A program made the position numbers and the translations under genes. A DNA stretch of 64,000 nt from IMG/VR virus record IMGVR_UViG_3300036794_000053, positions 32,001 to 96,000 of that record. One strand, written 5' to 3'. The notes beneath the pieces were generated by a model. That model saw only the letters and a program-made list of their open reading frames with translations, made no database searches and was not told the origin of the DNA. This stretch comes from a virus (Duplodnaviria; Caudoviricetes). Shown in pieces: positions 6,638 to 64,000 of the stretch (within the stretch, counting starts at the first letter, position 1; each line of letters starts with the position of its first letter).

Positions 6638-6701
6638 GTCGAGCTCGGCGGTGAGCGCTTCGGCTAGGCCGGCGAGCTCGACTCGTAACCACTGTTCGAA
6701 G

Positions 6702-10258: not shown

Positions 10259-10545
10259 GATCTTTCCTCTCGCTTGGGTCGTGACTTGTTTACACTGCCC
10301 AAGCGGGTCGAGCCAAGGTATCGGCCGGCTCGACCCGCCTCACTTACCCTTCCGTGGGTGCGGTGGCAACGCTCGCGCCTTGGTGAGCTGGGCTTCTAGC
10401 CCGCACCGCTTGCACTCCCCCATCACCACCGACCCGGTCAGTGTCTTGACGAGCCGGACGTTGATTGCCTTGGTATACGAGCCGAAGCAATCCATACCAC
10501 CTTTCCTTTCTGTTCGTTTCTCTCCCGAAAGGGGGCTAAATTAAA

Positions 10546-14313: not shown

Positions 14314-14928
14314 TCACCCTTCCCCGTACAGGTTGACTATCTGGTTGATCCGAGCCGACGGTGACATCTTTCGCAAATACACCGCCGTGGTATTTAGATG
14401 CGTATGCCCGAGCTGCTCCTGAATGTTCGTCATCACCACACCGTTGCGTTCCAACTCGCACGCATGCCAGTGCCGTAGCGCGTGCGGGTGCACACGGTGT
14501 TCGATACCAGCCCGAGCCGCGGTGTCCGCCACTATCTGACGTATCTGCCGGTCACCCAATGCGTGGCCGCGGGCGCCGCGCCATAGCCCACACATCAGCA
14601 CCGGCCCGCGAATCCCGAGCACCTTACGGGCGTCCCGCCACCGGGCAACGTGCAACAGTTGCGGCGCAAGACAGCCGGCGATCCTGGCTTTGTCTCCCTT
14701 TCCGTGCAGCACGTGGATTGAACCGCGTTCTAGGTTGACGTTGCCGGGGCTGAGCGCGGTGACCTCGGAGTTGCGGAGGCCGGCGCCGAGCATGGCGGCG
14801 ATGATCGCCCGGTTCCGCATGGCGGTGGGTGTGTCGTTGGATCGCACGGTGAGTAGCGCGTGCGCTTCGTCGTTAGTGATCTCTTCGTAGGGGAATGTCT
14901 TGTCTTTATGGGTGGGCGGCGCGGTCAT
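14314..14928 (-). CDS. Tyrosine recombinase, catalytic domain only (XerC/FimB-like size)
   Basis: RNRA...GAGLRNSEV, GKGDKAR, HPHALRH and LGHTHLNTTAVY (R-K-H-R-H-Y intact). Confidence 0.92.
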   Translation of the reverse strand: MTAPPTHKDKTFPYEEITNDEAHALLTVRSNDTPTAMRNRAIIAAMLGAGLRNSEVTALSPGNVNLERGSIHVLHGKGDKARIAGCLAPQLLHVARWRDARKVLGIRGPVLMCGLWRGARGHALGDRQIRQIVADTAARAGIEHRVHPHALRHWHACELERNGVVMTNIQEQLGHTHLNTTAVYLRKMSPSARINQIVNLYGEG

Positions 14929-15013
14929 GGTGTGTCCTCTCCATTGTTGCAACGCTGTGAGTTACACTGATCGAAAGCACAATTGTTCTTGTGTCGCTGC
15001 GCTTTCGAACTAG

Positions 15014-35128: not shown

Positions 35129-38100
35129 GTGGTTGCTTCAGCGAGCCAACTCCATCTAGAGATCACAGCGGATTCCACTAACGCTGTTGATGCGATGGAT
35201 AAGGCGAAGTCCGCGATTCGTAACTTGCATGGTGAGCGGGCTTCGATCGGTATCGAGCTCACCGGCGCCCAAGAGGCCGCTAGCCAGATCGATAGGGTTC
35301 GGCAGGCGCGGGAGAAGGCGTCGGGGACTGTCAAGGTCGGTGTTGACGCTGGCGGTATGGATGAGGCTGAGGCGAAGGTGGGGTCGCTGCGCCGGGCGGT
35401 GCAGGGTTTGGCTGGGGATTTGGCTCCGTTGGGTCGGTCTCGGCAAACGTTGTCGGTTGATTCTGGTGGGATTCGGCAGGCGGCGGCGGATACGGCCGAG
35501 TTTGGTCGGCAAACCAACCAGGCCCGCGGGTCGCTCACCGGTTTGGCTAGTGATGCGCGTGGCGCGGCGGACAGCCATGAGTCGTATTCGCGGTCGGTCC
35601 GGGCCGCCACAGCATCCACCGGTTCGCTGGTCAGTGCGCATGGTGATGCGGAGCGCAGTTTCGGCCGCGTGTCAGCGAAGGCGGACGAGCTGGGTGCCCG
35701 GATGCAGTCGGTGGGTGCGCAGATGGCCGCGCATGAACGCTCAATCAACCAGTTCTCGAATTCTTCTGAGCGGGGTTTGCGTCGGGTCGCTGACGCCGCC
35801 GACGATTTGGGTGCGCGGTCGGGGAACATCGCCGCCGCGGCCAAGGAGTTGAAGGGGTTGGCGTCGGCCGCTGAGGATGCGGATCGGGCGAATGCCCGGT
35901 TGAGCAGCAGCCGCCCGCCCGCACCCCGGGAGCCGGTTCCGGTGCGGGAGTTGGCGATGGCCGGCGCACCAGCCGGCGGCGGGGGCAGCGCGGGTGGTGG
36001 GGCGCAGCCGAGTCCGTCTATGGGGTGGCGTGGCGCGACGAGCCCGAACGAGCCGGGCCGGACCGGGTTCCGGATTGACAACAACGAGCGCCGCATGCAG
36101 GCACGCCAGGGCCGACCAGCTCCTACTGGCGGTACCGGCGGTGGTACTGGTGGTGGGCCGCCGCCACCGCCGAAGGGCTACGGGGGTGGCCCAGTCGGCG
36201 GCGACGATGAGGACCCGGATGATTTGTTGGGTCGCCGGGAGGCCCGGGCGAGGCTGGAGGAGCAGGCCGCGGCTGAGAAGGAAGCCCGGCAGGAAGCGGA
36301 CAGGGCGGCCCGCGCGGCGTCTCATCAGAAGGTGATGGACCGGCTCGCGCAGGCCAAGAAAGAGGGCATGCTCAGCCGGGAACAACCACCCGAGGCGACC
36401 GCCGCGGCTAAACAACTTCAGGATGAGCAGCAGTCGCTGTGGGATGCGGCGCGTGGCGGCCCGGGGACACCGGGCCCGTATGAGACTGGGCCGCATGGTG
36501 AGGCGGGTTCTGGTTTCCGTAGCCATTTCCCGCCGCCGATGCAGGGCCCGGAGCGGCCGGTAAGCCCGGAAACGCAAGCTGATATCAACCGGGCCGCCCA
36601 GTTGCATGAGCAGGAGCATGCGAAATGGCAGGCGAAACACGACGCAAAGGCGATCGAGAAGCAAGCCGATAGGGCGGCGGCGGGTTTGGGTCCGACGGGT
36701 CCGGAGCAGTCTCCGTTTGAGTCGGACGCTGAGTATGCGACTCGGATGGCTCGTGGCGTCAAGGACACGAAGGCTGCGGAGGAGAGGACTCGGGCGAAGC
36801 TTGCCGCTCGGGGGACTGTCTCCGCGAAACACCTTGGGGAGATCGAGGAGTCGGAGCGGACGCTGAGGTACGGTCCGCCACCGGGCGACACCGCGTCTAC
36901 CGCTCCGGTGTGGAATGCGGATAAGGGCCAGTGGGAGTACCCCAATGAGCCGCCGGACAAGCAACCTCCTCCCCGCCGTGGAGGCGGCCGTGGTGGTGCT
37001 GGGGGCGCTGGTGGTAAGGAACCGGGCCCGTTCGAGGACGAGGAGAAAGCGTTAAAGTCGGTTCACGGGCCCGCGATGGTCAGCCTGCTGGGTTCTGGTA
37101 TGGCCACGATTGTTACCGCTCTCGCCGGGCTGCTCCAGGCCAAAGAGGTGATCAAGAACACGCCGTCGTTGGCGGGCGCGTTTGGTGATGCGCAGAAACA
37201 TTTCGCCCAGGGTGTTTCGGATGCGATGGACGCGAAGATTGATGCGGCCGCGGCGCCAATGCTTGAGGCCACCAAAAACAATCTGTACCAGTTTGGTAAG
37301 CAGTTGGAGAAGACCGGCGAGGCGATGCTGCCGACGTTCGCCCACGTGTTGGATCAGGCGGCGGCGCAGGCCGCGACCTCTAATGCGGCGTTGCGGCCGA
37401 TCATGCCGGGCGCGGCGACTGGGTTGGGTGACACGCTCGATTCGATTATGTCCGCGATTTCGTCGCCGGCTTCGATCGCTGGCCAGAAGTCGGTGATTGG
37501 TGCGTTGACGAGCGGGCAGGATCAGGCGGCCATCTCGGATATCACTGGCGGGGTTATCGGCGCCGGTGGCCCGGTGTTGAAAGGTGTTTTGGACGCTGGC
37601 GGCATGTTGGACAGCGCGTTCGGTGGCGGGTTCGGTGGGGGTGACAAGTCCCAACAGTTCGCGTCGGCTATTTCGGCTGGTCTCGGTGGCCGTGCCGGTT
37701 GGCTAGCGAGTGGCGGGAAAGGCGTGTTGGCCGCTCGCGCGGCCAGTGGCACAGCTGGGGCCGCTGAAGCTGCTGGCGGGGCAGCTGGTGGCGCGGGGGC
37801 CGCTGTCGGCGCCGAGACGTCTCTTGTCGGCCCCATCTCGGGTGCCGCTGCCGGTGTTGGTCTGGGTTTGCTCACCCAGTATCAGCAGCAGCAGAACGCT
37901 GAGCAACCGGGCAGTCAGGACACCACGCAGAACTTGCTTTCCGCGGCGGGCGGGTACGGCTTGGCGAAAGCGTTCGGGCTCAAAGGTGGCTGGCCGATGA
38001 TTGCTGGTTTTGCCGCCGACGCCGCGACAAGTGAAGCGCCGATACCGAAAGACTGGAAGACCGCGATTGACAAAACCGTGACCGGCGCCGGTCTTGGCGC

Positions 38101-40851: not shown

Positions 40852-43800
40852 ATGGCCGGGCTACACCTCGAAGTCACAGCGGAAGATTGCCGCCCCGCTG
40901 ACACCATGCGAAGGGTCGGCGAAGCGGTTCGGGAATTGAGCCGTGAAGACTTACGCGAGGATGTCGAGGTTGAAGCCGCGGAAGACGCGGCCCGGCGGTT
41001 GGCGAGGGTGCGTGAGGCGTGGGCCGGCTCCTCACGCACCGTCAAGTTTGAGATCGAAACCGAGGACGAGTCCGAGGAGAAGATCGGGTCTTACCGCCGC
41101 GCGGTGCAGGGTTTGGCCAAAGAGTTCGACGTCATCGGCATGACCAGGCACACCGTCATGGTCGACGGCGGGTTGTTGCGCCGCGCGTCCGGTGACATGG
41201 ACGAGTTCTCCCGGCAGGTTGACCGTGGTCGTGTCATGGTGCGCGCAATGGGCGAATCGGCGGACGCCGCCGGTGACGGTCTGGATGTGTATTCGGGTTC
41301 GTTGCGGGCGGGTGAGCGGGACACCCGTTCTTTGGTGGGGGCTCACGCGGATGCGGAACGCAGTTTCGCGGAAAGCACTTCCCGCATGGACGATATCGGG
41401 TCGCGTCTGAATGTTGTGGGTAAGGCCGCGGATTACGAGTCGCCGCTAGATCGCGGTGGCGTTCCTTCATTTGGGTCGGCGCCGTCGGAACCACGGGTGC
41501 CTGCTTTAGCTGGCGCCGGTGGTCAGGCTCCGCGTGGGGCGCAGATGACCAGGTATTACAGGGCGCCGCAGAAAGCGCGGCCTCGTTCCCCGGAAGACCC
41601 GAAGGATCGGGCCGCGCGCCGTGCTGTGGTTCGGGAGGCTGAGCGGATAATGCGGGGCGGGGGACCACCTCAGGGGCCTCGTAAGCCACCCGGCCCCCCT
41701 AGTGGCGGTTCCGGTGGCACTCCCGGCGGCGGCGATGAGTCGTTCAATGAGCGGAGGCTTCACCACTTTCTGGGCAGCGAAGACTTCGAGGCGGAAATGG
41801 AGAAGGAGCGCCAGCGGTTGCTGGAGGAACGCCGGAATGAGGCGCTTCAGCGCGCAATCGAACGCGGCAAGGACCTTCCCCGGCCTGATGCTGATATGCA
41901 GGTGCCGCCGGCTACGGTGGCACCCGGCTCCGAGGAAGCGTTGGGTCGGACACGGCAACAGCCGAGCCCAGGGGAAGTCGCTGACGCCACCCAGGAGAAG
42001 CGGGTGCCGCGGTCTTCCCCGCAGGAGGACTCTTTAGAGAAAGCCCGTAGAGAAGCTGGCGAGAAACTGGACCAAGCCTTCGAGAAGTACAAGAAGGAGC
42101 ATTCGGAGGAGAGTCTTAGGGAATGGGCGCGCGCCCAGGCGCACTACGACGTCGCAAGGGCAAACCTGCGGGATGCCGCCAACAAATTGCCTCCTGCCCC
42201 ACCGAGCGCGCCTAGCCCGCCCGTGCAGCCGAGTGCGCCCAAACCGCCTGTGCAGCCGAAGGCCCCGAGCGTGCCCCCTACGGGTGGTGGCGCGGGCACT
42301 GCGCCGGCCCCACCTGCGCAGCCGGCGCCTCCCGCGCAACCTCCCCCAGCTGCCCCGCCCAGCGCGCCCCAACCCCCTGCTGCGCCCCCGGCGCCCCCGG
42401 CTCCCGCGGAACCTCCTCCGTCCCAGCCGGTTCCTCCGCGTCCTGCCGATCAACCTCCGGCTGGTCCTCCAGCTGAACCGTCGGCCGGAGGACCGCCGCC
42501 TACAGCCGCCGGGGGTGAGCGCGGCGGGGGTGGGGGTAAGGAACCTGGTCCGTTCGAACGGGAAGCGCAGGCGTTCAAGTCCAGCCTTGGCGCGGGCATG
42601 GTCAGTGGTTTCCTGGCTGGGACGGCCACCATGGTTAGCGCCATGGCTGGTTTGGCCGAAGCCAAAACGGTGATCAAGAACACCGGCGAGTTGAAGAACG
42701 CTTTTAGCGACGCGAAGGCCGAGTTCGCCAAAGGCATTCGAGACAACGCGAACGCTAACCTTGACGCCGGATTCGCACCCCAACTGGAACACCTGGGTGA
42801 TTCGTTTAACCAGTTCGGCAAGAGTCTGGAACAGACCGGCCAGTCTATGTTGTCGACGGCAGCTAATCTTTTGAACCAAGGGGCGGCGCAAGCCGCTATC
42901 TCCAGTGCGGCGCTGCGGCCTATCATGCCCGGTGCCGGCGCTAGCTTGGGTAACACCATTGACTCGCTGCTCGGCGCGGTGTCGTCACAGGCTTCCATCG
43001 CGGGCCAGAAGAGCGCCATTGGCGGTTTGACCAGCGCCGACGATCAGTCGGCCATCTCGGATATCGCCGGTGGCCTCATCGGCGTTGGTGGCCCAGCGCT
43101 GAAAGCGGTGGCGGACATTGCTGGGATGGTCGACAGCGCGTTCGGCGGCGGGTTCGAAGATGAGTCTCAGAAGTTCGCTGCCGGCATTTCCGTTGCCGCT
43201 GGTGCGCGCGCGGGTTGGGTAGCCGGCGGCCCGGTGGGTGCGCTGGCCGGCGCCGGCCTTGGCCTTCTCACCCAGCTCCAGCAGGGGCAGGGGCAACAAG
43301 ACACCACCCAAGGTCTGCTTACCGCGGCTGGGGGCTACGGACTTGGCAAGGCTTTCGGGCTCAAGGGCGGCGCGTCGATGCTTGTCGGTCTCGGGGCCGA
43401 TTTCCTGACGTCTGAGGTTTCGCTACCGCCCGAGTGGGAAGACACCGCTCAGAAAGCCGTGCAGGGCGGCGGCCTGGGGGCGGTCCTAGGTAACGCTCTC
43501 TTCGGGGGGAAGGGCGCGATCGCGCTCGGTCTCGCTGGCGCTCTCCTCAATGCGCAGGATTCCGCCGGGGCCGCGATGGGACTCACCTCGAAGTCTGGTT
43601 GGGGGAAGATCGGCAGCTCGGCTGAGTCGGGACTGCTGGATTGGGTGAAGGACGCGGGGCTCGGCGTCCAGGGCGCGCATGAGGCGTTCGGTCAGGACTT
43701 CGCTTCGTTCCGGCAGGGTGTGGCGGACGTAACGCAAGGACCGCTGCAGGACATTGCCGGCGCCGCTCACGACCCAATCGATCAGGCGGTGTTTGGCCAA

Positions 43801-45999
43801 CACGGGTTCCTTATGCACCCTGGCATGTTCGGTCCCACATCTCCGGTGGCTATGCCGGATGTGCCGGGTGTGCAACCCGGCTCGGGGATGATGTCTGTTC
43901 CGGATATCGATCAGCAGATGTTCCCGCCGGGTTCGAAGCAGGACACGGTCACTACTCCGCTGGGGACGTTCCAGCGTGCCCAGGGCGATGACGGCGCGCT
44001 CAGTTTCCAGAACCAGTTCATTTCGGGTGCGAGCAGCGCTTACCAGTCGGCTCCGGGGCAGGGCAGCGTGCTTGACACGCAGTCCGCTCCGGACGCGTCG
44101 GGGGCGTATCAGCAGCAAATTGTTACGCAGGACCCGGCTTCTGGTATTACACGTACTCAGGAGCAGGATTTTGATCCTGCGAAGGGTGGTCTCCAGCGGC
44201 CGCTGGTCCCTGTGTATACGTCACCTACGCCCCCCCAGCCTAAACCGGGCGAAGACGATGCGATTGGCCAGCCCAAGAAGAAGGGGCCCGGCGGACCGAA
44301 GGATAAGGGCGATTTGCGGGGTGAGAAGCACACTGGTGGCTTCCACATCGGGTTGTGGCATTCGTTGAGCGGCGGCCAAAAGCTCGTCCAGAAGCCTCAG
44401 AAGCCCCAGAAGGATAAGAACAAGCCCCAACCCGCTCCCCCTACGGGCGGCGGTGGTGGCGGCGGTTCCAGTCTGAACAGTCCTAGTGCGATATCGGACT
44501 TCCTCAGCCAGCTGAACTCTGATGCGTCTTCGGCTCCGGCGCCGTTGAGTCAGGTGGGGCATGCGTCGGCGGCGGCGAAGTCGCACTTGGCGAACGTGTC
44601 GGCGAACTCGAACAAGGTGAACACCGCGTTCCGCCAGACCGGTGTGGATGCCGCGTCGGCTACGGCGCAGACCCGGCAGCTTGACCATTCGACTCAACTG
44701 CAGCGGCAGCTTGAGCAGACTCACCAGTCAAACGCTGGCGTCAATAGGTCGTACAGCCAGGTAGGGGCGGCTGGTAGCCAAACTGCCGACAGCATGCAGA
44801 ATGTGCAGAACACTTCGGGCCAGGCGCAGCAGACGTTGCAGGCGAATCGGCAGTCGTTGACTCCGCAGCCACCGGCCCCGCCAAAGCACATCCCGCCTCC
44901 GGTGCACGCTCCGCAGCAACCACCACAGCAGCAGCAGCCGGGTGTGGGCGATGCCAACATGTCGCCGCTGAAGGACTCAGCGGCACAACAACAGCAGCAG
45001 CAGCCCGCTAGCGCCGGTGGTGACATTGCGCCGCCCCCGGACCCATCATCGGCCGGCGCGGACCTGGCTATCTACCAGGAACACACGGTAGAGATGCTGT
45101 GGGATGCCGGGTTCGTCCTGGCCGGTGTGGAGAGCCCAACCGAAATGACCGAGAAACACATCGGCCATATGGGCCAAAACGTTGGTCACGACACCGGCAA
45201 TGATGCGAAGGGTGGTTCCGCCGGGTCTCAGGTGATGGAGGAGGCCACTAAGGCTGGCGGCGGTAAAGGCGGTTCGTGCGCCACCGGTAAGGCCGAGGCG
45301 AAGAAAGCTGGTAGTTGTGCGAGTGGCGCCGCTGGGGCTAAGTCGCCGGCTACGAAGTGGATGCCGATCGGCGCGGATTTGACCGCTGGTATGGATGTTG
45401 GTATGCGGCGGGACCGGTTGGAGAGCAGCGGCCATAACGCGGCCAGTGCGTGGGCGAGTCGTATGGCGGACGGTTTGGAGCATGGCGGCTACACCAGGGC
45501 GGCTGACTCGGTTGTCGGTCAGCTCGGCGGCCAGCTCGGGCTGGGCGACGCCGTGAACAACGCGCTAGCGAACGTCGCTAACACCATCGCCCAGTTCAAC
45601 TACAACTCGGAGTTGGCTGGCGCGTTCGGGGCCGGGCTGGTCGCCGCGGCGAATGGTGTCACTCCGATCGCGCAGGATCACGGGTTGATGATCGGGTACG
45701 TGTTCGCCGAGAACATCGTGACCGGCGCGCAGAATGTGCTGCAATCGGCGGCGTTCGCGGACCTCGTCGTCCCAGCCTTCAAGTCGGCGTTGGCGCAAGC
45801 TGACCTCGGCAAATTGGGACTGCTCCCTCCCGCTGGTCGGGGTGCGCAGTATTACACCACCACTTCTGGTAGCGCTGGGATGGTGTCGATGACACCGGTG
45901 GTGAACACGACGGTGACCGTGTCTGATTCTGGTGGGACGCCGTTGCAGTCCACTAACAAGGTGTTGAGGGCGTCGTGGACTAACCGTAACGCCGCGTAA
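40852..45999 (+). CDS. Tape measure protein 2 (1715 aa), paralog of TMP1
   Basis: Collinear shared blocks with TMP1 from N- to C-terminus; SPATKWMPIGADLTAGMDVG motif. Confidence 0.8.
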   Translation: MAGLHLEVTAEDCRPADTMRRVGEAVRELSREDLREDVEVEAAEDAARRLARVREAWAGSSRTVKFEIETEDESEEKIGSYRRAVQGLAKEFDVIGMTRHTVMVDGGLLRRASGDMDEFSRQVDRGRVMVRAMGESADAAGDGLDVYSGSLRAGERDTRSLVGAHADAERSFAESTSRMDDIGSRLNVVGKAADYESPLDRGGVPSFGSAPSEPRVPALAGAGGQAPRGAQMTRYYRAPQKARPRSPEDPKDRAARRAVVREAERIMRGGGPPQGPRKPPGPPSGGSGGTPGGGDESFNERRLHHFLGSEDFEAEMEKERQRLLEERRNEALQRAIERGKDLPRPDADMQVPPATVAPGSEEALGRTRQQPSPGEVADATQEKRVPRSSPQEDSLEKARREAGEKLDQAFEKYKKEHSEESLREWARAQAHYDVARANLRDAANKLPPAPPSAPSPPVQPSAPKPPVQPKAPSVPPTGGGAGTAPAPPAQPAPPAQPPPAAPPSAPQPPAAPPAPPAPAEPPPSQPVPPRPADQPPAGPPAEPSAGGPPPTAAGGERGGGGGKEPGPFEREAQAFKSSLGAGMVSGFLAGTATMVSAMAGLAEAKTVIKNTGELKNAFSDAKAEFAKGIRDNANANLDAGFAPQLEHLGDSFNQFGKSLEQTGQSMLSTAANLLNQGAAQAAISSAALRPIMPGAGASLGNTIDSLLGAVSSQASIAGQKSAIGGLTSADDQSAISDIAGGLIGVGGPALKAVADIAGMVDSAFGGGFEDESQKFAAGISVAAGARAGWVAGGPVGALAGAGLGLLTQLQQGQGQQDTTQGLLTAAGGYGLGKAFGLKGGASMLVGLGADFLTSEVSLPPEWEDTAQKAVQGGGLGAVLGNALFGGKGAIALGLAGALLNAQDSAGAAMGLTSKSGWGKIGSSAESGLLDWVKDAGLGVQGAHEAFGQDFASFRQGVADVTQGPLQDIAGAAHDPIDQAVFGQHGFLMHPGMFGPTSPVAMPDVPGVQPGSGMMSVPDIDQQMFPPGSKQDTVTTPLGTFQRAQGDDGALSFQNQFISGASSAYQSAPGQGSVLDTQSAPDASGAYQQQIVTQDPASGITRTQEQDFDPAKGGLQRPLVPVYTSPTPPQPKPGEDDAIGQPKKKGPGGPKDKGDLRGEKHTGGFHIGLWHSLSGGQKLVQKPQKPQKDKNKPQPAPPTGGGGGGGSSLNSPSAISDFLSQLNSDASSAPAPLSQVGHASAAAKSHLANVSANSNKVNTAFRQTGVDAASATAQTRQLDHSTQLQRQLEQTHQSNAGVNRSYSQVGAAGSQTADSMQNVQNTSGQAQQTLQANRQSLTPQPPAPPKHIPPPVHAPQQPPQQQQPGVGDANMSPLKDSAAQQQQQQPASAGGDIAPPPDPSSAGADLAIYQEHTVEMLWDAGFVLAGVESPTEMTEKHIGHMGQNVGHDTGNDAKGGSAGSQVMEEATKAGGGKGGSCATGKAEAKKAGSCASGAAGAKSPATKWMPIGADLTAGMDVGMRRDRLESSGHNAASAWASRMADGLEHGGYTRAADSVVGQLGGQLGLGDAVNNALANVANTIAQFNYNSELAGAFGAGLVAAANGVTPIAQDHGLMIGYVFAENIVTGAQNVLQSAAFADLVVPAFKSALAQADLGKLGLLPPAGRGAQYYTTTSGSAGMVSMTPVVNTTVTVSDSGGTPLQSTNKVLRASWTNRNAA

Positions 46000-54965: not shown

Positions 54966-56141
54966 GTGAGTTATCCATCTGATCCAGTACCGAATTGGCA
55001 GGACTCTCCGTCCGCGGCGACGCCGCTTGATGCCGCGAACCTGAATGAAGACAGCGCCGCGATTGAGCAAATCCAGGCGTTTCTGCCGTCGCTGCAGCTG
55101 TACATTCCGTTCACCGCGGTCCAGACCGCCAGTACTGTCGCCGCAGTAGCGAACCAGTTTGTTTTGGTGAGTACCGCCTCGACCGCGGTGACGGTTAACT
55201 TCCCGGTTGCCCCGGCGAACTTCGCCGTGGTCGGTATCAAGATGGTCGCGCAGGCCAGCACTAATATGGTGACGGCGCAGCTGGGTGGCTCGGACACGTT
55301 CGACGTGACGGGCGGCTCAACGACGGCCACGCTCAAGCTGCTCAATCAGGGCGCGATCTGGCAATACAACTCGTCGACCGCCGTGTGGGTCAAGATTTCC
55401 GACAACCTGCCGCTATCGCAGCTGGACCTGCGGTATGTCGGGTCGGTGGCCGCTGGGGATAGCACGATCACGATGGGCGGCACCGCGACCGCGCCGACGG
55501 TGAAGGTCGCTCAAGCTAACCTGACGATTGCTGAATCGCAGGTCACTAACCTGACCAGCAACTTGAACAGCGCTTTCGGCGCGGGCGGTCAGTGGGCTCC
55601 TAATGTGTTTTCCACGCAGGTGGAGAACATGGAACGCGGCGTCGTGGGCAACAGCAGCCTGATCATGACAGGCACCACCCGCACTTGGTTGATCCTGTTG
55701 GGGTTGTGCCCAGCCAGTACGTACGCGTCATTCAAGCTGTTTCTGTCTCCGGCGGCGTCGGGTACTGCCGGCACGATGACGTGTGCGCTTTTCAGCGGCT
55801 CGTCGCTCACGTCGACCTCGTGGTCGCGTTTGGGGTCGGGGAACGTCACGATGGGGTCGCTCACCACAGCCGGGGTAATCACTACCTCGTTGGCGTTCAC
55901 GTTGGCGTCGCCGGCTTATGTTGCGTTGGAGATGGTGGCCACTACCACGTGGGGTACCACCCAGCCGTCCTTCGCTGGGAGCACCGCGCTCACGTTGACT
56001 GGTGGTTCCGGGTTCATGAATCCGGCTTCTGGTTGTCCGGTGTTTGGCACGGCGAGCGGCACGTCCGCGCCGGGGTCAACCCTGAACCCCACCACTGGTT
56101 TCACTGCTAGTGCTCAGAAGATTTGGTGCGCTCTCGCCTAA
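54966..56141 (+). CDS. Tail fibre / receptor-binding protein candidate
   Basis: WQDSPS.ATPLDAANLN N-terminal anchor; IAESQVTNL. Confidence 0.7.
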   Translation: MSYPSDPVPNWQDSPSAATPLDAANLNEDSAAIEQIQAFLPSLQLYIPFTAVQTASTVAAVANQFVLVSTASTAVTVNFPVAPANFAVVGIKMVAQASTNMVTAQLGGSDTFDVTGGSTTATLKLLNQGAIWQYNSSTAVWVKISDNLPLSQLDLRYVGSVAAGDSTITMGGTATAPTVKVAQANLTIAESQVTNLTSNLNSAFGAGGQWAPNVFSTQVENMERGVVGNSSLIMTGTTRTWLILLGLCPASTYASFKLFLSPAASGTAGTMTCALFSGSSLTSTSWSRLGSGNVTMGSLTTAGVITTSLAFTLASPAYVALEMVATTTWGTTQPSFAGSTALTLTGGSGFMNPASGCPVFGTASGTSAPGSTLNPTTGFTASAQKIWCALA

Positions 56142-56201: not shown

Positions 56202-56438
56202 TTACTTGCACTGCGTGATCGTGCCGGCGAATCCGAACCAGGACAGGAAGATCGGGATAGAGGCGACGCAGTTCGCGGTGGCGGTCCCGGACGAGCCGGA
56301 CTTTCCGCTGCTGGAGCCGGTGGAACCACTGGAGCCGCCGGCACCGCCGGCCCCTCCCGGAGAACTCGACGCGTACGCGACGCCGGGACACAAAGCTAGG
56401 GCGACAACCGTCGCGGTGGCCAGACAAGCACGCTTCAT
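56202..56438 (-). CDS. Small secreted peptide (signal, Gly/Ser linker, disulphide-closed hydrophobic tip)
   Basis: MKRACLATATVVALALCPGVAYA signal, then GS-rich linker, then NCVASIPIFLSWFGFAGTITQCK. Confidence 0.7.
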   Translation of the reverse strand: MKRACLATATVVALALCPGVAYASSSPGGAGGAGGSSGSTGSSSGKSGSSGTATANCVASIPIFLSWFGFAGTITQCK

Positions 56439-56544
56439 GGAACGCCCCCATGGGGTGGTGTGCGGGTGGTGGGGGCTGGATCGCGCCCCCACATGCAGAG
56501 TCGCACACCCCGGATTTTCTGTTACTGGGCCATTGGGGTGATCC

Positions 56545-56943
56545 ATGCCTGATCAGCCTGACCTCACCCCACGCCGGATGAGGTTCGCTTCGGTGTGGCG
56601 TGTCATGGTCGCGGTCACCGACGTCCTCTATGGCGGGGTGTTCGTTCTCGGCGGCACCGCTCACGCTTCCTACCAGCAGCTGCTGAAACCCACCATGCCG
56701 ATTGGTGTGTGGGGTGCGCTATTGGTGTTGGCGGGCGCGTTGTTCGTGTCACGGTATCTGGAGTGGGGCGGCGTTCTGGGCGCGCTGATCTGGACCACGT
56801 TTTCTGTGGCGTCGATGGTGACGCTGTTTCAACACACCGCCGAGACCGCGACCGGCCCAATCCTACTGGCGGCGTTCGCGGTTCAACACGTGCTCATCAC
56901 TTACGCGGCTGCCGCCGGGTTGGCCGCGCGACGGCGGAGGTAA
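56545..56943 (+). CDS. Four-helix membrane protein (lysis region)
   Basis: Several hydrophobic segments. Confidence 0.7.
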   Translation: MPDQPDLTPRRMRFASVWRVMVAVTDVLYGGVFVLGGTAHASYQQLLKPTMPIGVWGALLVLAGALFVSRYLEWGGVLGALIWTTFSVASMVTLFQHTAETATGPILLAAFAVQHVLITYAAAAGLAARRRR

Positions 56944-56948
56944 AGAGT

Positions 56949-57338
56949 GTGCCGACTGGAGCAGTTCCGCTGCCGTCTAACCCATGGTTGGCGTGGGCTA
57001 TCGTCGCGGTGTCCCTCATCATTGCTATCTCGCCGATTATTACTAGTCGAGTGAAGGACCACCTGAATCCGTCCGCGCATATCACAGTTTCCCCGACCCC
57101 GAGCCCAGTGGCGACGGTCGCTCCGCAGGTTGATGGGTTGAACGCGTTGATGGCGACGCTGGTGGCGAACCTGGAGAAACGCACCTCGGCGGCGGAGAAG
57201 AAAGCGGAGGACTTAGCGGAGGAGAACGGGAACCTTCGGCAGCAGTTGGCGAAAGCGGAGGAGCGTGCCGAGCACCTCAACGCGCGCGTGCAAGTGCTTA
57301 CTGACCGTCTGATGCAGCGAGGCCAGCGTGACAACTGA
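56949..57338 (+). CDS. Membrane-anchored coiled-coil protein
   Basis: N-terminal TM, C-terminal heptads. Confidence 0.7.
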
Positions 57339-57906
57339 TCCCGAGGAGGAGCACAACCCTGAAGAGGTTGTGCAGAAGATCGGTGAACTGTTCGCGGAAG
57401 CGGTGAACGAGGCTGCGCAGAAAGCTGAGCAGAAGGCTGAACAGCAGGCGCCGTATGAGGTGCGGAAGGCGATGCGCCGCTGGTATGGGCTGATTGTGGT
57501 CATGTCGGCGTTGATTGCGTTGGGTGTGTCGTTGGCGGGGTTGACGATCGGTTTGAACGCGCGGGCTGAGGTCGCCGCGGCGCATCAGGCGTACATGGCG
57601 CGGGCGGCGTCGTTGTCGACGCAGCGGCAACGCATCGCGGCGTTGAATGTGTTGTTGGCCCAGCAGGGTAAGCCGACGGTGGAGTTGCCGACTGATCCGT
57701 TGCAGGGGACCACGAATTTGACGTTGGCGAAGGTTCTGTTGCAGTTGCCGAAACAGGTTGTGGCGCCAGGGCCGAGGGGTATCCAAGGAATCCCAGGAAT
57801 TCCTGGGCCGCGTGGGCCGCAAGGACCCCCAGGCCCACCAGGACCAATAGGCCCAATGGGGCCTCGCGGCTACCCGGGAAGGCCATTCATCGCCCCGCCG
57901 CGCTAG
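57328..57906 (+). CDS. Membrane protein with collagen repeat
   Basis: TM plus ~13 Gly-X-Y triplets. Confidence 0.75.
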
Positions 57907-57909
57907 CCT

Positions 57910-58281
57910 GTGCGCATGGTCGGGCGCCATGTCTCCCCACCGTCGCGCAAAACGAGCATGTTCCTCGCGGCCTGCGGCGCCATTTTCTGCGTCTCATGGC
58001 TGGGTGCGCACACCGCGCTCGCGGCGGCACCAGCTGTGCATGATGGAAAGGACGGTACAAACGGCATCAACGGCCTAGCCGGCAAGAACGGCTCAGACGG
58101 GGTAAACGGTCACGACGGGAAACGCGGCCCCAGGGGATACACCGGACACAGCGGCTCGGACATTCGGGTTGCCACGTTCAAGTTCCCCTTCGGTGTGTAC
58201 GTGTGTCCTCGCGCGGGGGGTAACGATCTGGACCCCTTGTACGACTGCTCGGCTGGCATCCCTAAACCGAAAGGTCCGTAA
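57910..58281 (+). CDS. Secreted or membrane collagen-like protein
   Basis: Hydrophobic N-terminus, GKDGTNGINGLAGKNG repeats, two C-terminal Cys. Confidence 0.65.
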   Translation: MRMVGRHVSPPSRKTSMFLAACGAIFCVSWLGAHTALAAAPAVHDGKDGTNGINGLAGKNGSDGVNGHDGKRGPRGYTGHSGSDIRVATFKFPFGVYVCPRAGGNDLDPLYDCSAGIPKPKGP

Positions 58282-58443
58282 TGCACTTCGTTATGGCTGT
58301 CCTGATCGCCGCCACAGGTCTCTTCGGAGACGGCGGTGGGGCGCAGGCCTCCCATCACTCGTTCTGTTTCTACCACCCGCACGCCTACGTATGCGTGCGT
58401 CACAACGGTTTCCACCGTTTCCACCGCCTTCATGGAGGGCACC

Positions 58444-59118
58444 ATGTTTAAGTCTGTACTTACTGTGCTCGCCGCCGCGGCGGTGGCACTCGGGGTTTCC
58501 GCCGGGACCGCCCAGGCGACCGCCCCTACCTTCAACGACAACTGTGTGTCTAACGGCGGCCTCGTGTCGACTGGCTGCAACGACATCAACACTGTGACCG
58601 GTCTTCCGCTTGTCGGGGGTCTTCTGGGTAGCCAGGGTGGTTTGCTCGGCGCCGGTGCGCTTCCGTTCCACCACCGTCGCGGCTTCTTCCCGGGTGGCGG
58701 TTTCGGCTGGTCCCCATATCTGGAAGGTTCCTTCCTGAACGGTGCCGCGTACGGTTTCAACCAGGTTGAGGTGTGCCCGTTCCAGTCGTTCGGCGCTTTC
58801 TCCGGGACGTGGCGGCACCGCCTCGGCGGCCGGTGGCCGGGTTTCGAGCGGACCATGTTCGGGCTTGACCGTGGCGGCTGGGGCCGTAGTTTCGGTGCGC
58901 TACGCGCCGAGGCCTGCGGTGGTGGTTCGGTGATCGCTGAGCCGTACCCGGTCGCGGTACCGGTTCCGGCTTATGACCCGGGTGTCGGGTCGTGTGGGTG
59001 CGCCGCGCCGGCTGCCTATTTCCCGTCCCCGTCGGGTAACCGGATCACTGATGTGCCGCAGTACGCCCCGTCGGCTGGCGATAGCGGTCTGGCGCCTGAC
59101 ACGGTGCGAGTGAACTAA
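58444..59118 (+). CDS. Secreted Gly/Cys-rich protein, probable sortase substrate
   Basis: GGAGG RBS; signal peptide ending AQA; C-terminal VPQYAPSAGDSG; abuts the sortase gene. Confidence 0.7.
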   Translation: MFKSVLTVLAAAAVALGVSAGTAQATAPTFNDNCVSNGGLVSTGCNDINTVTGLPLVGGLLGSQGGLLGAGALPFHHRRGFFPGGGFGWSPYLEGSFLNGAAYGFNQVEVCPFQSFGAFSGTWRHRLGGRWPGFERTMFGLDRGGWGRSFGALRAEACGGGSVIAEPYPVAVPVPAYDPGVGSCGCAAPAAYFPSPSGNRITDVPQYAPSAGDSGLAPDTVRVN

Positions 59119-59676
59119 ATGCGTTGGGGGGTCCTGGTGGCCCTGCTGGTGGGTGCGTTGTGTGTCGGCGCACCCACCAGCTATGCCGCCACCAGAGTGA
59201 TACCGACGGAGATACGCATCCCATCCATTGGAGTGGACGGCCAGTTGATGGGGCTCGGGTTGAACCCAGACCGGACACTGCAAACACCGCCGTTGAAGAC
59301 TCCGCTGCTCGCCGGCTGGTATGTCGGTGCACCTGTCCCGGGCGATCCTGGCTCGGCGGTGGTAGTGGCGCATGTCGATGGTGATGGCCAACCGGGGTTG
59401 TTCCTCAATCTGTCCAAAGTCAAAGCTGGCGACGACATCTATGTGACCCGGTCGGACGGGAAGACCGCCACGTTCGTGGTCACTCAGGTAGCTAAGTATG
59501 CGAAGGAGCCTGGCGACGCGGTGAAGGGCGAGCAGGTGTTTCCGAGCGAGTTGTTCTATAGCAACCAGGCGCAGTCGGAACTGCACCTCGCTACCTGCGG
59601 CGGCCGGTATGACGCGGCGAACCGCAACTATCTCGACTCGATCGTGGTCTATTCGAACCTGGTTAGCCTGCGATGA
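59119..59676 (+). CDS. Class F sortase
   Basis: IRIPSIGVD, AGWY...PVPGDPGSAVVVAHVD, GDDIYV.RSDG, LHLATCGG and IVVY; catalytic His and Cys present. Confidence 0.92.
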   Translation: MRWGVLVALLVGALCVGAPTSYAATRVIPTEIRIPSIGVDGQLMGLGLNPDRTLQTPPLKTPLLAGWYVGAPVPGDPGSAVVVAHVDGDGQPGLFLNLSKVKAGDDIYVTRSDGKTATFVVTQVAKYAKEPGDAVKGEQVFPSELFYSNQAQSELHLATCGGRYDAANRNYLDSIVVYSNLVSLR

Positions 59677-60545
59677 CCGCGGGCGTTGACTACTACGCGG
59701 GTCCGGTGAACCCGGCCGCGCTCACCGCCGCCGGCTACGCCTGCGTTTTCCGCTATGTGGACGACGCGATCTATGGGCTGGCGTCGAAGAACATCACTGT
59801 GGTCGAGTACAACGAACTCACCGCCGCCGGCCTCGATGTGTACTTGGTGTTCGAGCATCTGGCCGATGACTACACGGGCGGCTTCCTCGCTGGTGTGGTG
59901 AACGCGCAACGCGCGCTGAGCGGCGCCACCCAGCTCGGCTATAGCGGCCCGGTGTTCATATCGATTGATGACCACCTAGACGCTGAACAAATCCCGATTG
60001 CAGTGGACTATCTGGATGGTGCCGAACACATCCTCGGCCAGCAGCTCGGGGTGTACGGATTCTCCGAGTTGATCCAAGCCTGCCAGGCGCAGCAGCTCGG
60101 CAGCGTGTATTGGCAGTGCGGTCACCAGCCCGCCGCGAACGCGGGTGTTCATGTGTGGCAGCGAAACGATGGCTCGGTAACGGTCGACGGTGTGGTGTGT
60201 GACGTCGATGTGATCCTGATCCCTTTCCCGGAGGAAGACGACATGGCCCAGGTGCCGCAGGACCAGTGGAATACGGTGTACACCCAGTTGTGTGGGCTGT
60301 TCACGGCGTGGGCTGGTGGCACCACCGGTGATCCGGACAACACCGCCTACGACTTCCTACAGTATTTGCTGCGGGCGAACGTGCAGCTGAACCAGCTAGG
60401 ACTGCAGGTAGCGGCGCTTCAAACCACGGTCGACTCCCTGACCTCAGGCACTATCGCTGAAGGGGAAGTGCGGCGCATCTCCGAGGCGGTTGTGCAGACG
60501 ACGCTGAAGTCATTGGCTGACTCGCTCAGCGGCCAACGCGGCTAA
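59673..60545 (+). CDS. Endolysin, DUF1906/Rv2525c-like glycoside hydrolase
   Basis: GVDY, FRYV, KNIT..EY, LVFE, VFISID, GVYG and WQ motifs. Confidence 0.85.
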   Translation: MTAGVDYYAGPVNPAALTAAGYACVFRYVDDAIYGLASKNITVVEYNELTAAGLDVYLVFEHLADDYTGGFLAGVVNAQRALSGATQLGYSGPVFISIDDHLDAEQIPIAVDYLDGAEHILGQQLGVYGFSELIQACQAQQLGSVYWQCGHQPAANAGVHVWQRNDGSVTVDGVVCDVDVILIPFPEEDDMAQVPQDQWNTVYTQLCGLFTAWAGGTTGDPDNTAYDFLQYLLRANVQLNQLGLQVAALQTTVDSLTSGTIAEGEVRRISEAVVQTTLKSLADSLSGQRG

Positions 60546-60757
60546 TGTGCCGGCATTCTTGGCACGCCTGGTTCGCCGCGTGCGGAGCCACCTTCACCTA
60601 CCTGGAATGGCGGGCCTATTACAGGGGTTGTCACCGCACCCTGTCACGGGAGCTGCGGGCGTGGCTGCGTTGCAAACAGCACCCGTGGTCGGCGCTGGTG
60701 TTCATTGCGTTGGGTGCGTGGCTGGCGCATCACCTGCGTGAGCTTCAAGAGCTTTGA
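60545..60757 (+). CDS. Small membrane protein
   Basis: TAATG coupling; E..A...TLS..LR.W motif with two hydrophobic segments. Confidence 0.6.
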   Translation: MCRHSWHAWFAACGATFTYLEWRAYYRGCHRTLSRELRAWLRCKQHPWSALVFIALGAWLAHHLRELQEL

Positions 60758-61241
60758 GCTGGGCGCCGAGTCGGGTGCATTCGCCGCGGACGTAATCGAG
60801 CGTGCGGTACGCCATGAGTCCGTCGCTGACGGGTTGCTCGGTGAGCCAAGTCAACGTTTGCAACAACGCATTCAAACCCGGTGAGACGTCGGATGCGTGC
60901 GCGCAGTCCCAGCCCAGCCACCACACGTTCGCTGGTTGCCCAGGTTCTGGGGTGTGACACACCCGGGACTCAACCGGCCCGTCCTCCTGGCAGAACGAGG
61001 AGAACGTCAACCCGCCGTGCACGTCAATGTCCGGGATGGTGCTGTAGTCCTTGCCGTGCAGCGGATGCCCAGGCGGCACCGCGACGTAGCCGCACCAGCT
61101 GCCGATAGACGGCATCGGCCGCACCGCTAGGCACGGGAATCCGGTGGCCTCGTCAATCCAATAGGCCTTGTCCGGTTCACCGTCCCACGGGCCGGGCCCC
61201 CAGCTGGTGCGGTCCATTGCCGGGTTAGTCCAGGTTTGCAT
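60702..61241 (-). CDS. Conserved phage hypothetical protein
   Basis: GPWDGEPD, WCGYV.VP..HP, VHGGLTF and WWLGWDCAH motifs. Confidence 0.75.
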   Translation of the reverse strand: MQTWTNPAMDRTSWGPGPWDGEPDKAYWIDEATGFPCLAVRPMPSIGSWCGYVAVPPGHPLHGKDYSTIPDIDVHGGLTFSSFCQEDGPVESRVCHTPEPGQPANVWWLGWDCAHASDVSPGLNALLQTLTWLTEQPVSDGLMAYRTLDYVRGECTRLGAQLKALEAHAGDAPATHPTQ

Positions 61242-61252
61242 GAGGAGACTCC

Positions 61253-61495
61253 ATGTTCACGTCCACGTTTTGGGCATCTACCCTGGAACGATTGTTGAAA
61301 ACGTTCTGCCAATCACTGTTGGCGATTCTGACGGTTGGCCCAGCATTCAACGTGTTGAACGTGTCGTGGTCGAATGCGTTGGGTGTCGCCGCCGGCGCCG
61401 CGATCCTATCTCTGTTAACGTCGTTAGCGTCCGTCAACATTGGGCCCGCAGGCTCCCCGTCTTTGGTGGGTAAGCATGAAGGGCCCTCCGAATAG
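61253..61495 (+). CDS. Holin (r1t-type)
   Basis: FW..TLER.LKTF.Q, V.W..AL.VA.GAAILSLLTSLAS; AGGAG RBS. Confidence 0.85.
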   Translation: MFTSTFWASTLERLLKTFCQSLLAILTVGPAFNVLNVSWSNALGVAAGAAILSLLTSLASVNIGPAGSPSLVGKHEGPSE

Positions 61496-62370: not shown

Positions 62371-62502
62371 CTAAGGCAGCACGTCATCGTCATCGACGTA
62401 CTCGTCATCATCGTCGGCTTGGCTGCGTGTCATATAGGCGGCCACCCCGATCAGCAGCAGCGTGACCGCCACCGCGAGCGCGATCTTCCACCCGTCACCC
62501 AT
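62371..62502 (-). CDS. 43-aa membrane peptide with acidic tail (not in the ORF track)
   Basis: MGDGWKIALAVAVTLLLIGVAAYMTRSQADDDDEYVDDDDVLP; start overlaps the TROVE stop. Confidence 0.6.
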   Translation of the reverse strand: MGDGWKIALAVAVTLLLIGVAAYMTRSQADDDDEYVDDDDVLP

Positions 62503-64000
62503 TCCACGGCCAACTTCCGTTGTGCCCGGATTCGAGCAGCGGGATCATCTTGAACGTGTGGTCTCCCATGCCGCCGAGCTGGTAGCGGTTCGGCTTATCC
62601 GGCAACATCGCCCGGTTGTAGCCGCCCAGGTTGAACGCGTAGATCGGGATGTTCGGCGGCGCACCGTCGGACACGTTCCCCCGATAGTTAGCGAACGACT
62701 GCTCATCGGTGATGATGACCACCCGGTCATGCTTGGCATAAGCGCCGTGGATCGCCGCGGCGGTTTCGGTGCCGTGCCCGACCTCGCCGACCCGCTTAAC
62801 GAACCGTTCCACCTCAGGTAGGACGCTGCCACCGGTGGTGATCTTGTGCTTGAAGATGCCGGAGGCGTATCCGTATAGGTCGACGTTGTTGGCGCCGCAC
62901 TTGTTGGCCAACGCCACCCCGAACAACGACGCCGTCATGACTGGGCTGATCTTCGACTTCGCCGAGTAGGTCATCCCGGACATAGACCCCGAGGTGTCCA
63001 CCAGGATCAGTGTCCGCCCGGTCAGCGCCGGGAGGTTCTGAAACGCCGAATCCAGAGCCTTCCCGAGCGCCACCTTCCACCGGTCATTACTGATCTCCTG
63101 GTAGGCGGAGAACCAGCGGTACGGTAGCTGCCGCGACTTGGCCACCACCTCCGGGTCGCTGATCGTGGCACACACCTTCGCCGCCACCTCATCAGAGACC
63201 CCAGCCTCATCGAAATTCCTGAGGTTCCGGATCAACGCCATGACCCCCATGTTCGGGATCATCGACTCCCACGCGCCCTTATCCATCGGACCCTGCAACC
63301 AACCAGCGACCGCCTCCCAAGTCATCCCCGCGTCATTCAACGCAACCGGGTCCAACGCGGCACGACGCTCACCAACCGGCAACGCCATCAACTGCGCACG
63401 ATTGGTCAACACCCGCAGCGACTCCGGGATCGGATTGTCCCGGTTGTGCCGGCGAGCCAACGCATGCTCATACAGATCACCCTGCCAACTGGCCTTCTTA
63501 TCCGGGTGGGTCAGATCGAGCACGTCACCGAACCGGACGGAACGCTTCTCATTCGCCGTGTCGTACTTCAGCAGGGACCGCTCGTTGTACAGCCTTTCGG
63601 CCGCGTCGGCGACGCCGCGCTTCAACGGCTTCGGCAGCGAACGCCCATACTGACCCATCCAATAGGCCAGCATCTCCCCCGGCTCATCGGCCCGCTGCAA
63701 CACCGAACTCACCACGGCACGGCCACCGGGAATTTTGCTGCCCAATGCGGCCTGCACAAACTCGGCCGCACCCACCAGTGACGCGGAGCGCATGTTGCCG
63801 TCGCCGCGTAGCCACCGCAGGAAATCGGCGGTCCATTCGGCGTCCTCAACGGTCGCCTTCCGCACCAACGCGGAGAACCGGGCGTCCCTGTCCTCCGCCT
63901 TCTCATAGAAGGTGCTCTCCCCAACAAAGTTGGAGACGGCGAGGAGGAACAGTTCCGACTTGGTGTCCCGCGCATACGCGGCGTGGCCCTCATACGTTGT
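62495..64000 (-). CDS. Ro60-like TROVE + vWA RNA-binding protein, 5' end outside the window
   Basis: Frame open to the edge (..KSELFLLAVSNFVGESTFYE); NMRS, RADEPGE, MTWE, MALIRNLRNF and MIDAS LVDTSGSM...TDEQ. Confidence 0.92.
   Translation of the reverse strand, partial: TTYEGHAAYARDTKSELFLLAVSNFVGESTFYEKAEDRDARFSALVRKATVEDAEWTADFLRWLRGDGNMRSASLVGAAEFVQAALGSKIPGGRAVVSSVLQRADEPGEMLAYWMGQYGRSLPKPLKRGVADAAERLYNERSLLKYDTANEKRSVRFGDVLDLTHPDKKASWQGDLYEHALARRHNRDNPIPESLRVLTNRAQLMALPVGERRAALDPVALNDAGMTWEAVAGWLQGPMDKGAWESMIPNMGVMALIRNLRNFDEAGVSDEVAAKVCATISDPEVVAKSRQLPYRWFSAYQEISNDRWKVALGKALDSAFQNLPALTGRTLILVDTSGSMSGMTYSAKSKISPVMTASLFGVALANKCGANNVDLYGYASGIFKHKITTGGSVLPEVERFVKRVGEVGHGTETAAAIHGAYAKHDRVVIITDEQSFANYRGNVSDGAPPNIPIYAFNLGGYNRAMLPDKPNRYQLGGMGDHTFKMIPLLESGHNGSWPWNG

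Follow-up and report, generated by a model that had tools for sequence, protein, structure and literature searches.

A sortase gene between a secreted protein and an endolysin

The stretch of DNA analyzed here, referred to as the window, is 64,000 nucleotides long and corresponds to bases 32001–96000 of the 106,197-bp IMG/VR record IMGVR_UViG_3300036794_000053 (CheckV completeness 86%). Its source is an uncultured actinobacterial phage of ~106 kb, and the record encodes a portal, long tail genes, a lysin and a holin. We describe three consecutive genes of the window, which encode a small secreted protein, a class-F-type sortase and an endolysin, and we examine the proposal that the secreted protein is the dedicated substrate of the sortase. 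The features of the three genes are as follows.

58444..59118, plus strand: putative sortase substrate, a secreted protein of 224 amino acids; ATG at 58444 with GGAGGG four bases upstream, TAA at 59116-59118
58444..58518, plus strand: predicted Sec signal peptide of the substrate, residues 1-25, with a predicted cut after AQA; judged by eye from the sequence and kept in relatives
59053..59115, plus strand: tail-less sorting signal of the substrate, VPQYAPSA/GDSGLAPDTVRVN, where the slash marks the putative scissile bond A211/G212; matches the class F signal found beside viral and cellular sortases
59119..59676, plus strand: predicted class-F-type sortase of 185 amino acids, assigned by Pfam, NCBIfam and fold; its ATG follows immediately on the substrate TAA
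59673..60545, plus strand: endolysin, LysA-like, with an Rv2525c-type glycoside-hydrolase domain (residues 16-144; PF08924, 57.3 bits) and a C-terminal region

An earlier note on this DNA, made from the letters alone, had reported that the substrate stop (59118) abuts the sortase ATG (59119) and that the sortase TGA and the endolysin ATG overlap as ATGA (59673–59676); both junctions are exact. The call of the substrate gene as coding rests on its homologues; a gene caller based on G+C content at third codon positions (GC3) favored antisense open reading frames (ORFs) at this position. The endolysin, which has no signal peptide, matched the endolysin family PHROG 13480 (E 1.7e-15), and a tblastn search aligned it with 17 lysin A or endolysin genes of GenBank actinophages (Mycobacterium, Rhodococcus and Gordonia phages).

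Class assignment, fold and catalytic residues of the sortase

Profile and structure comparisons indicate that the enzyme is a divergent class-F-type sortase, with a confident sortase fold and with class F as by far its best model. It matched Pfam family PF04203 over residues 32–181 with 67.1 bits (cut-off 26.6). The NCBIfam model of class F, NF033748, gave 156.1 bits (E 5e-46, model positions 7–154 of 155), compared with 31 bits for class E, 19 for class C and 17 for the GN model, so that the class F identity put forward in the earlier note holds, though at a score under the model cut-off of 166 bits. Scores of 137–159 bits were obtained for all eight phage or metagenome relatives tested, and 202.9 bits for a cellular Amycolatopsis enzyme. 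Because the phage enzymes fall under the 166-bit cut-off, standard automatic annotation would miss them as class F, which may be the reason why phage class-F-like sortases went unreported. Most of the closest relatives are labeled hypothetical in the records of the Joint Genome Institute (JGI), and the nearest named proteins are Amycolatopsis entries annotated as class F sortase, at 45–48% identity.

The AlphaFold model of the sortase has a predicted local distance difference test (pLDDT) score of 89 and forms the eight-stranded sortase beta-barrel. In Foldseek, its top PDB matches were sortases E, A, C and D, with E values of 3.5e-9 and weaker and a probability of 1.00. A PDB sequence search with the sortase gave no match, and a profile search aligned the His region only.

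The two residues that the earlier note had seen to be retained, His85 (59371–59373) and Cys160 (59596–59598), are invariant across 14 aligned relatives, and the possibility of a dead enzyme was rejected on this ground. In alignment with class C sortases, His85 falls on their catalytic His; Cys160 lies within LATCGG. Arg169, a candidate for the third catalytic residue, occupies the Cys+9 position, which is that of the catalytic Arg in class B and C enzymes, but this column varies among relatives. Arg163 is specific to the clade of the window sortase. A 9-residue insertion in the loop between beta6 and beta7 is also found in this clade only; in sortase A, the beta6/beta7 loop reads the sorting motif. 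At its N-terminus the sortase has a signal peptide that carries an A-x-A-like site (SYA/A) and no lipobox, as in the two closest relatives, and most other relatives have a lipobox. Signal-peptide cleavage sites were judged by eye throughout. Given these features, the mature sortase would be soluble.

A secreted putative substrate with a tail-less sorting signal

The protein encoded upstream of the sortase is rich in Gly, Arg and aromatic residues (18% Gly, 11% aromatic), contains six Cys and has no Lys in its mature part. Searches of Pfam, PHROG and NCBIfam gave no match and no known domain. Its structural model is mostly disordered (pLDDT 39), and an ESM Atlas search provided no lead (best score 0.78). 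The last 21 residues are VPQYAPSAGDSGLAPDTVRVN. The 13 residues that follow the putative cut have a mean hydropathy of -0.38, include one basic residue (Arg) and form no membrane helix. These properties bear out the earlier description of a secreted protein with a signal peptide, several Cys, this C-terminus and no anchor behind it.

By its residues, the signal is best regarded as a variant of the catalogued class F signal of the GVDTG type. Set against the GVDTG core P-x-G-x-x-x-T-G-x-G, the window motif P-Q-Y-A-P-S-A-G-D-S-G has Ala where the core has Thr, and Tyr in place of its first Gly, and the substrate of a related phage contig (L002, described below) retains P-E-G-P-P-N-T-G-D-S-G. NCBIfam models the GVDTG signal with a membrane anchor (NF058571), under the name "GVDTG sorting domain", of which our literature search found no mention. 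NF058571 did not match the substrates of the window, L002 or a second relative, L003, even at E 10, and it matched a cellular anchored example (L064) weakly, at 14 bits versus a cut-off of 29. The layout of this model, a hydrophobic membrane helix followed by a basic tail, is absent from the window substrate and from all 27 members of its family. The VPxxAPxxG signal of the earlier note is thus anchorless, as had been stated, but it is not a new motif, being a variant of the NF058571 type with tail-less forms also in Amycolatopsis.

Canonical LPXTG signals were not found either: no L[PA]xTG occurs near the end of any plausible ORF of the 106-kb record, and the anchor is absent as well. A tail-less class-F-type ending occurs in one ORF only of the same record, which is the substrate gene. 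Because no other ORF of the record ends with such a signal, the enzyme appears to have a single, private candidate substrate.

Conservation of the gene pair in related phages

Close relatives of the sortase (56–75% identical) were found in metagenomes only. We read the gene context of two of them, L002 and L003, on two IMG/VR contigs (120 and 98 kb) with portals 63–67% identical to that of the window. The order of genes common to the three phages is His-rich peptide, substrate, sortase, endolysin and small membrane protein. Substrate, sortase and endolysin are separated by gaps or overlaps of 0–9 nucleotides in L002 and L003, with 9 nucleotides between sortase and endolysin in L002. The three sortases are 58–63% identical and the three substrates 38–40%, and within the substrates the residues SGLAPD past the cut site are invariant. 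The same pair is thus present in both relatives with readable context. This is the conserved linkage on which the earlier note had made its claim depend, and it supports the identification of the upstream gene as the cognate substrate. Ahead of the pair, the window, L002 and L003 each encode a block of five or six proteins whose N-terminal segments are signal-like or hydrophobic.

The endolysin of L003 (8507–9508) is of the GH25 type, not of the Rv2525c type found in the window and L002, and its ATGA overlap with the sortase stop is retained. The endolysin has been exchanged between related phages while the sortase pair and the ATGA coupling stayed.

Other scans added little to this set. Single-sequence scans of viral contigs gave no match, a metagenome scan with the sortase gave matches of at most 44% identity and no close relatives, and a scan with a 10-sequence alignment of the substrate recovered the L003 contig only.

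Class-F-like sortases across viruses and cells

The search for class F sortases across phages that the earlier note had proposed was positive among uncultured viruses and empty among GenBank phages. Class-F-like sortases were found on 39 other IMG/VR contigs. In most cases the protein encoded upstream is tail-less, and the location is often between the tail genes and the lysis genes. For the 37 contigs beyond L002 and L003, viral status rests on IMG/VR and on sampled hallmark genes. Three class-F-like queries gave no match in 50,697 GenBank phage genomes, and no sortase fold was found in BFVD.

For 39 viral and 80 cellular class-F-like sortases, the gene directly upstream was compared; with few exceptions, its product has a signal peptide and ends in P-x-G-x-x-x-[TA]-G-[DG]-[GS]. 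The class F signal was seen upstream of ~30 viral and 72 cellular class F sortases. By automatic count, the signal is tail-less in 26 of the 30 classifiable viral neighbors versus 29 of the 72 cellular ones, where the cellular sample is mostly Amycolatopsis and the tail-less counts are not independent.

In a tree of 61 sortases, the window sortase nests among class F sequences. Its clade comprises 12 sequences, is supported by a value of 99 in the Shimodaira–Hasegawa approximate likelihood-ratio test (SH-aLRT) and contains no cellular sequence from the sample used. The sister of this clade is a group of four viral sortases (L005, L024, L008 and L009), whose substrates are small proteins with much Gly and little Lys, which carry a similar CGC motif and a signal of the AGDGSC type. 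The upstream protein of L008 matches the profile of the window substrate family with an E value of 7e-8, and those of L009 and L024 match it weakly. Taken together, the cell-free window clade, the similar substrates of its sister group and the loop insertion confined to the clade suggest that enzyme and signal have evolved jointly within phages for a long time.

The sister-clade substrates (L005, L008, L009 and L024; for example L008 7060–7548) also display a third type of ending, in which ...AGDGSC is followed by an Arg-rich, non-hydrophobic tail of ~25 residues and which thus differs both from a membrane anchor and from the short SGLAPD tail.

In the window, L002, L003, L005, L009, L014, L030, L035, L039 and a few more contigs, a peptidoglycan hydrolase gene follows the sortase gene within ~2 kb; the hydrolases at these loci are of the Rv2525c, GH25, CHAP, Amidase_2 and M15 types. 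Tail proteins lie upstream of the pair in L008, L009 and L031, with a weak tail-spike match in L007. At other viral loci the pair stands beside a terminase, MuF, portal or HNH gene. The idea that the pairs of other contigs all lie near packaging genes was rejected, since family searches placed many of them upstream of endolysins. The earlier note needs correction on this point: pairs recur at the tail–lysis junction of other uncultured actinophages, and the position seen in the window is not a one-off.

A putative substrate family that avoids lysine

A profile search of 1.84 billion representative sequences recovered 26 clusters of the substrate family, and the analyses of family tails and composition covered 27 sequences. 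Members with a complete N-terminus have a signal peptide. In every member, a Cys...Cys module of ~55 residues, present once or twice, and a Pro-rich linker precede the signal, behind which comes a tail of 7–15 residues and never a membrane helix. Among the ten sequences with an SGLAPD-type tail, the most conserved 12-residue segment of the protein (0.84) is GDSGLAPDTVRV, and this segment is the predicted leaving group.

The mature substrates of the window, L002 and L003 contain no Lys, where 6.9 would be expected for the window substrate. Across the family there are 15 Lys in 7127 residues (0.21%), compared with 3.56% in twelve other proteins of this phage. The Arg content of the family is normal (4.9%), and its rare lysines mostly sit in the leaving tail or in the linker beside the signal. 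The lysine content is ordinary in the other class F substrate types of phages, which are acidic and in many cases carry DNDGVACE-type calcium-binding motifs.

Lysine avoidance of this kind fits a donor that is barred from acting as an acceptor or from attacking its own acyl-enzyme. The lysine-free family therefore argues against pilin-like polymerization and for transfer to a defined external amine. The lysine nucleophile of the pilin motif is lacking in the mature substrates of the window, L002 and L003, and pilin-like self-polymerization was rejected because the mature substrate has no lysine; for the same reason, pilin-style linkage through lysine is unlikely as a form of the protein polymerization that the earlier note had entertained.

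Genetic neighborhood of the pair

Short plus-strand genes form an unbroken run between the last tail-fibre-like gene (54966–56141) and the endolysin, with starts that abut or overlap the preceding stops. The neighbors of the pair and of the endolysin are listed below.

57328..57906, plus strand: collagen-repeat protein of 192 amino acids with one hydrophobic helix and a C-terminal collagen-like repeat (Pfam Collagen, E 5.9e-8); relatives at the equivalent position in L002 and L003
57910..58281, plus strand: Lys-rich collagen-repeat protein of 123 amino acids with a hydrophobic N-terminal segment and GKD/GKN/GKR triplets (Pfam Collagen, E 2.7e-7)
58281..58451, plus strand: His-rich peptide of 56 amino acids with a signal-like N-terminus; an ORF with an 8-nucleotide overlap with the substrate start
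60545..60757, plus strand: small protein of 70 amino acids with a hydrophobic helix at the C-terminus; coupled to the stop of the endolysin gene and kept in L002
60702-61241, minus strand: gene of 179 amino acids between the endolysin block and the holin; family search without a match
61253..61495, plus strand: r1t-type holin (Pfam PF16945, 74.2 bits), the end of the lysis cassette

The protein encoded at 57328..57906 is the first of a tightly packed run, ahead of the endolysin, of proteins that look exported or membrane-bound. The Lys-rich protein that follows it has a homologue in L002 (6173–6679), and the stop of its gene overlaps the ATG of the 58281 gene as TAATG. As a candidate amine acceptor this Lys-rich protein is speculative. 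His-rich ORFs, which the earlier note does not mention, are located directly upstream of the substrate gene in the window, L002 and L003. The window peptide (58281–58451) was aligned with its L002 counterpart (6681–6887) and with the L003 copy (6847–7032), giving 16 invariant columns that include 7 His. It retains ~33 residues past the predicted cut, with 11 His in the window copy, and this small peptide may act as a metal binder. For the small protein at 60545..60757, Pfam and PHROG searches gave no family match. The minus-strand gene at 60702-61241 splits the lysis cassette of the window; in L002, the holin directly follows the small membrane protein.

Promoter and terminator scans of the region from 54.5 to 62.5 kb gave no promoter-like site and no convincing terminator, and an Rfam search of the window found no family; tRNAs were not found. 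The pair sits in a gene-dense block that runs from the tail genes to the lysis genes and is thus presumably expressed with the late genes. The possibility that the pair is host DNA flanking a prophage was rejected, as overlapping ORFs surround it, with tail genes on one side and the endolysin and holin on the other. A large serine recombinase of 484 amino acids is encoded near the end of the record, outside the window (G000:C1:101809-102066), and a short tyrosine recombinase of ~212 amino acids in the window (14314–14952, minus strand); because both are present, the phage may be temperate.

Proposed role of the module and alternatives

Given the gene pair, its signal and its setting, we lean towards the view that the two genes constitute a self-contained phage sortase ligation module that attaches the substrate covalently to the host wall late in infection. 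Substrate and sortase would be co-expressed late with the lysis genes and both exported by Sec, and the cleavable-looking signal peptide of the sortase, in place of which relatives have a lipobox, would be removed. Cys160 would then form a thioester at A211, with the cut between A211 and G212 of ...APSA/GDSGLAPD... setting free GDSGLAPDTVRVN, and the lysine-free protein rich in Gly, Arg and aromatic residues would be passed to an envelope amine, most likely that of a peptidoglycan stem peptide or of lipid II. Because the signal has no membrane anchor, we propose that recognition would depend on the conserved leaving group GDSGLAPD together with the clade-specific beta6/beta7 insertion. The purpose is the least certain part: we favor a change of the wall surface around lysis, which might mask receptors on debris or block late superinfection and so hinder adsorption to the dying cell. 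If late wall attachment does take place, it would represent an undescribed phage route to envelope alteration around lysis.

Several points weigh against this proposal. The sortase falls 10 bits below the cut-off of NF033748 (166), the column of Arg169 (Cys+9, before the last strand) is occupied by H, K or G in some relatives, and the Thr at the scissile position is Ala in the window and S, L or D in some relatives. A tail-less precursor might be secreted without processing, and it is not obvious why a phage should decorate a cell that is about to lyse. To our knowledge, no class F sortase has been shown to act on a GVDTG-type signal. According to PMC8225981, the sole characterized class F enzyme uses LPXTG, and PMC13251363 describes a quadruple srtF deletion in Actinoplanes that gave no phenotype.

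A further possibility, which we hold with low confidence, is that ligation is independent of the membrane. The sortase would be soluble once its signal peptide is cleaved, the leaving group GDSGLAPD would take the place of the anchor and be read by the clade-specific beta6/beta7 insertion, and a sticky protein would be grafted late onto peptidoglycan or onto the upstream Lys-rich collagen-like proteins, where it would coat wall polymers that act as phage receptors. Were this correct, the module would provide the first natural substrate and the first biological role for a class F sortase, as well as a new late phage function that reduces the loss of progeny on debris. An anchor-independent sortase with an extended recognition tag might in addition find use in protein ligation.

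It seems unlikely that the pair serves lysis itself, with the sortase loading large amounts of the substrate, late in infection, onto amines of lipid II or of free stem peptides, so that cross-link groups are capped and the wall is weakened for the endolysin. Such a role would agree with the ATGA coupling to the endolysin in the window and L003, with the distance of 9 nucleotides in L002, and with the occurrence of a peptidoglycan hydrolase, of one of at least three further types, within ~2 kb downstream at nine or more further viral loci that belong to different sortase clades. However, other viral pairs adjoin terminase, MuF, portal or HNH genes, cellular genomes carry tail-less pairs without lysis genes, and no known lysis system operates in this way.

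We also doubt that the pair is cargo of lysogenic conversion, that is, a moron that alters the surface of the lysogen (exclusion or adhesion) and that sits beside the lysis genes as a common insertion site. No promoter-like site precedes the pair, its ORFs overlap their neighbors, and the sortase clade appears old within these phages and distinct from cellular sequences, which argues against a recent pick-up, even though two recombinases, a large one of the serine type and a small one of the tyrosine type, suggest a possibly temperate phage and pairs lie at module borders in other contigs.

Extracellular assembly in the manner of pilus sortases, in which the donor would be joined to lysines or N-termini of the exported proteins encoded upstream, such as the Lys-rich collagen-like proteins or the His-rich peptide, is improbable. 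The donor lacks Lys while the neighboring collagen-like repeats are Lys-rich, and five or six exported-looking proteins precede the pair in three phages, but L003 has no collagen repeats, no conserved pilin-like acceptor motif was seen, and such neighbors were not seen at the sister-clade loci. We give equally little credence to processing alone, in which the enzyme would be a dedicated C-terminal protease (the thioester being hydrolyzed) or a cyclase, and would thereby mature a secreted protein, for example one that binds wall polymers or is antimicrobial, without anchoring it: once exported, enzyme and substrate both look soluble, nothing in the tail-less signal would hold the substrate at the membrane, and the leaving group is highly conserved, as it is at times in propeptides, but sortases are a family of transpeptidases, and the anchored motif with a basic tail that is common beside cellular class F sortases points to wall anchoring.

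Comparison with known systems

The closest parallels to the window pair are cellular. Pairs of a class F sortase and a GVDTG protein (NF033748 and NF058571) share with it the enzyme class, the position of the substrate gene directly upstream and, apart from the substitutions in the window motif, the core of the signal. Tail-less neighbors annotated as "choice-of-anchor P", for example ...VPAGAPQTGDGSLAAEG, occur in Amycolatopsis beside the closest cellular homologues of the window sortase (47–48% identity). Unlike these cellular pairs, the window pair is phage-borne. Its enzyme scores 156 bits, compared with 203 bits for the cellular one, has HL.TCGGR in place of RLITCGG and contains the 9-residue beta6/beta7 insertion. 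Its signal has Ala at the position of Thr and an invariant SGLAPD extension, and its cargo is an orphan, lysine-free protein.

A possible functional analogy is provided by Llp of phage T5 and Ltp of phage TP-J34, phage envelope proteins that block receptors and thereby protect the progeny or the infected cell. Both are non-covalent lipoproteins that have no enzyme partner, and they bear no relation in sequence or structure to the window substrate. The class C sortases of pili are, like the window enzyme, dedicated sortases encoded beside their substrates, and they may ligate protein to protein. Pilins, however, need a lysine nucleophile and a membrane-anchored signal, whereas the substrate family of the window is virtually lysine-free and anchorless.

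SrtF of Cutibacterium (Propionibacterium) acnes belongs to the same named class and has the same Cys/His transpeptidase core (Di Girolamo 2019, as cited in PMC8225981 and PMC13251363). As portrayed in these two articles, it is a housekeeping enzyme that acts on LPXTG substrates with membrane anchors and has no private substrate, unlike the window enzyme.

Among phages, the nearest precedent is a class B sortase of huge gut phages (bioRxiv 10.64898/2026.10.24.761521), which is likewise phage-encoded, has a putative substrate encoded immediately upstream and was proposed to serve display on the host wall. This October 2026 preprint states that sortases had been undocumented in viruses before. 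The gut phage sortases belong to class B, have canonical substrates and come from phages of more than 200 kb that infect Bacillota; the window enzyme, by contrast, is class-F-like, comes from an actinobacterial phage of ~106 kb, is paired with a tail-less substrate and is coupled to an endolysin.

Sortase–substrate pairs, the class F signal and its tail-less cellular versions are already present in databases. As far as we found, the literature does not describe class-F-like sortases of actinophages, a lysine-free family of dedicated substrates whose anchorless signal is extended, or the conserved coupling of such a family to an endolysin. The module extends phage-encoded sortases, reported once so far (class B, in the 2026 preprint), to actinobacterial phages, and it combines three unusual properties: its signal lacks an anchor, its donor lacks lysine and its place before the endolysin is conserved. 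Class F sortases are widespread in Actinobacteria, where no physiological role is known for them and no natural substrate has been verified outside Cutibacterium. As a minimal matched pair of enzyme and substrate, in which the one candidate substrate of the genome carries a short, defined signal, the module offers a testable handle on this class.

Other features of the window

Two consecutive, very long ORFs in the tail region (35129–40840 and 40852–45999, plus strand) encode proteins of 1903 and 1715 amino acids, presumably the tape measure and a large tail or baseplate protein. A gene on the minus strand that runs off the end of the window (62495–64000) encodes a Ro60-like protein with TROVE and von Willebrand A domains; Rfam found no Y-RNA in the window. 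A minus-strand ORF at 56202–56546, which overlaps a plus-strand ORF, encodes a protein in which a signal peptide and a linker rich in Gly and Ser are followed by a conserved hydrophobic Cys...Cys loop at the C-terminus (...WFGF.GTITQCK). The protein has a bacteriocin-like or membrane-active appearance, and it is kept elsewhere in L003, at 10286–10534 on the minus strand.

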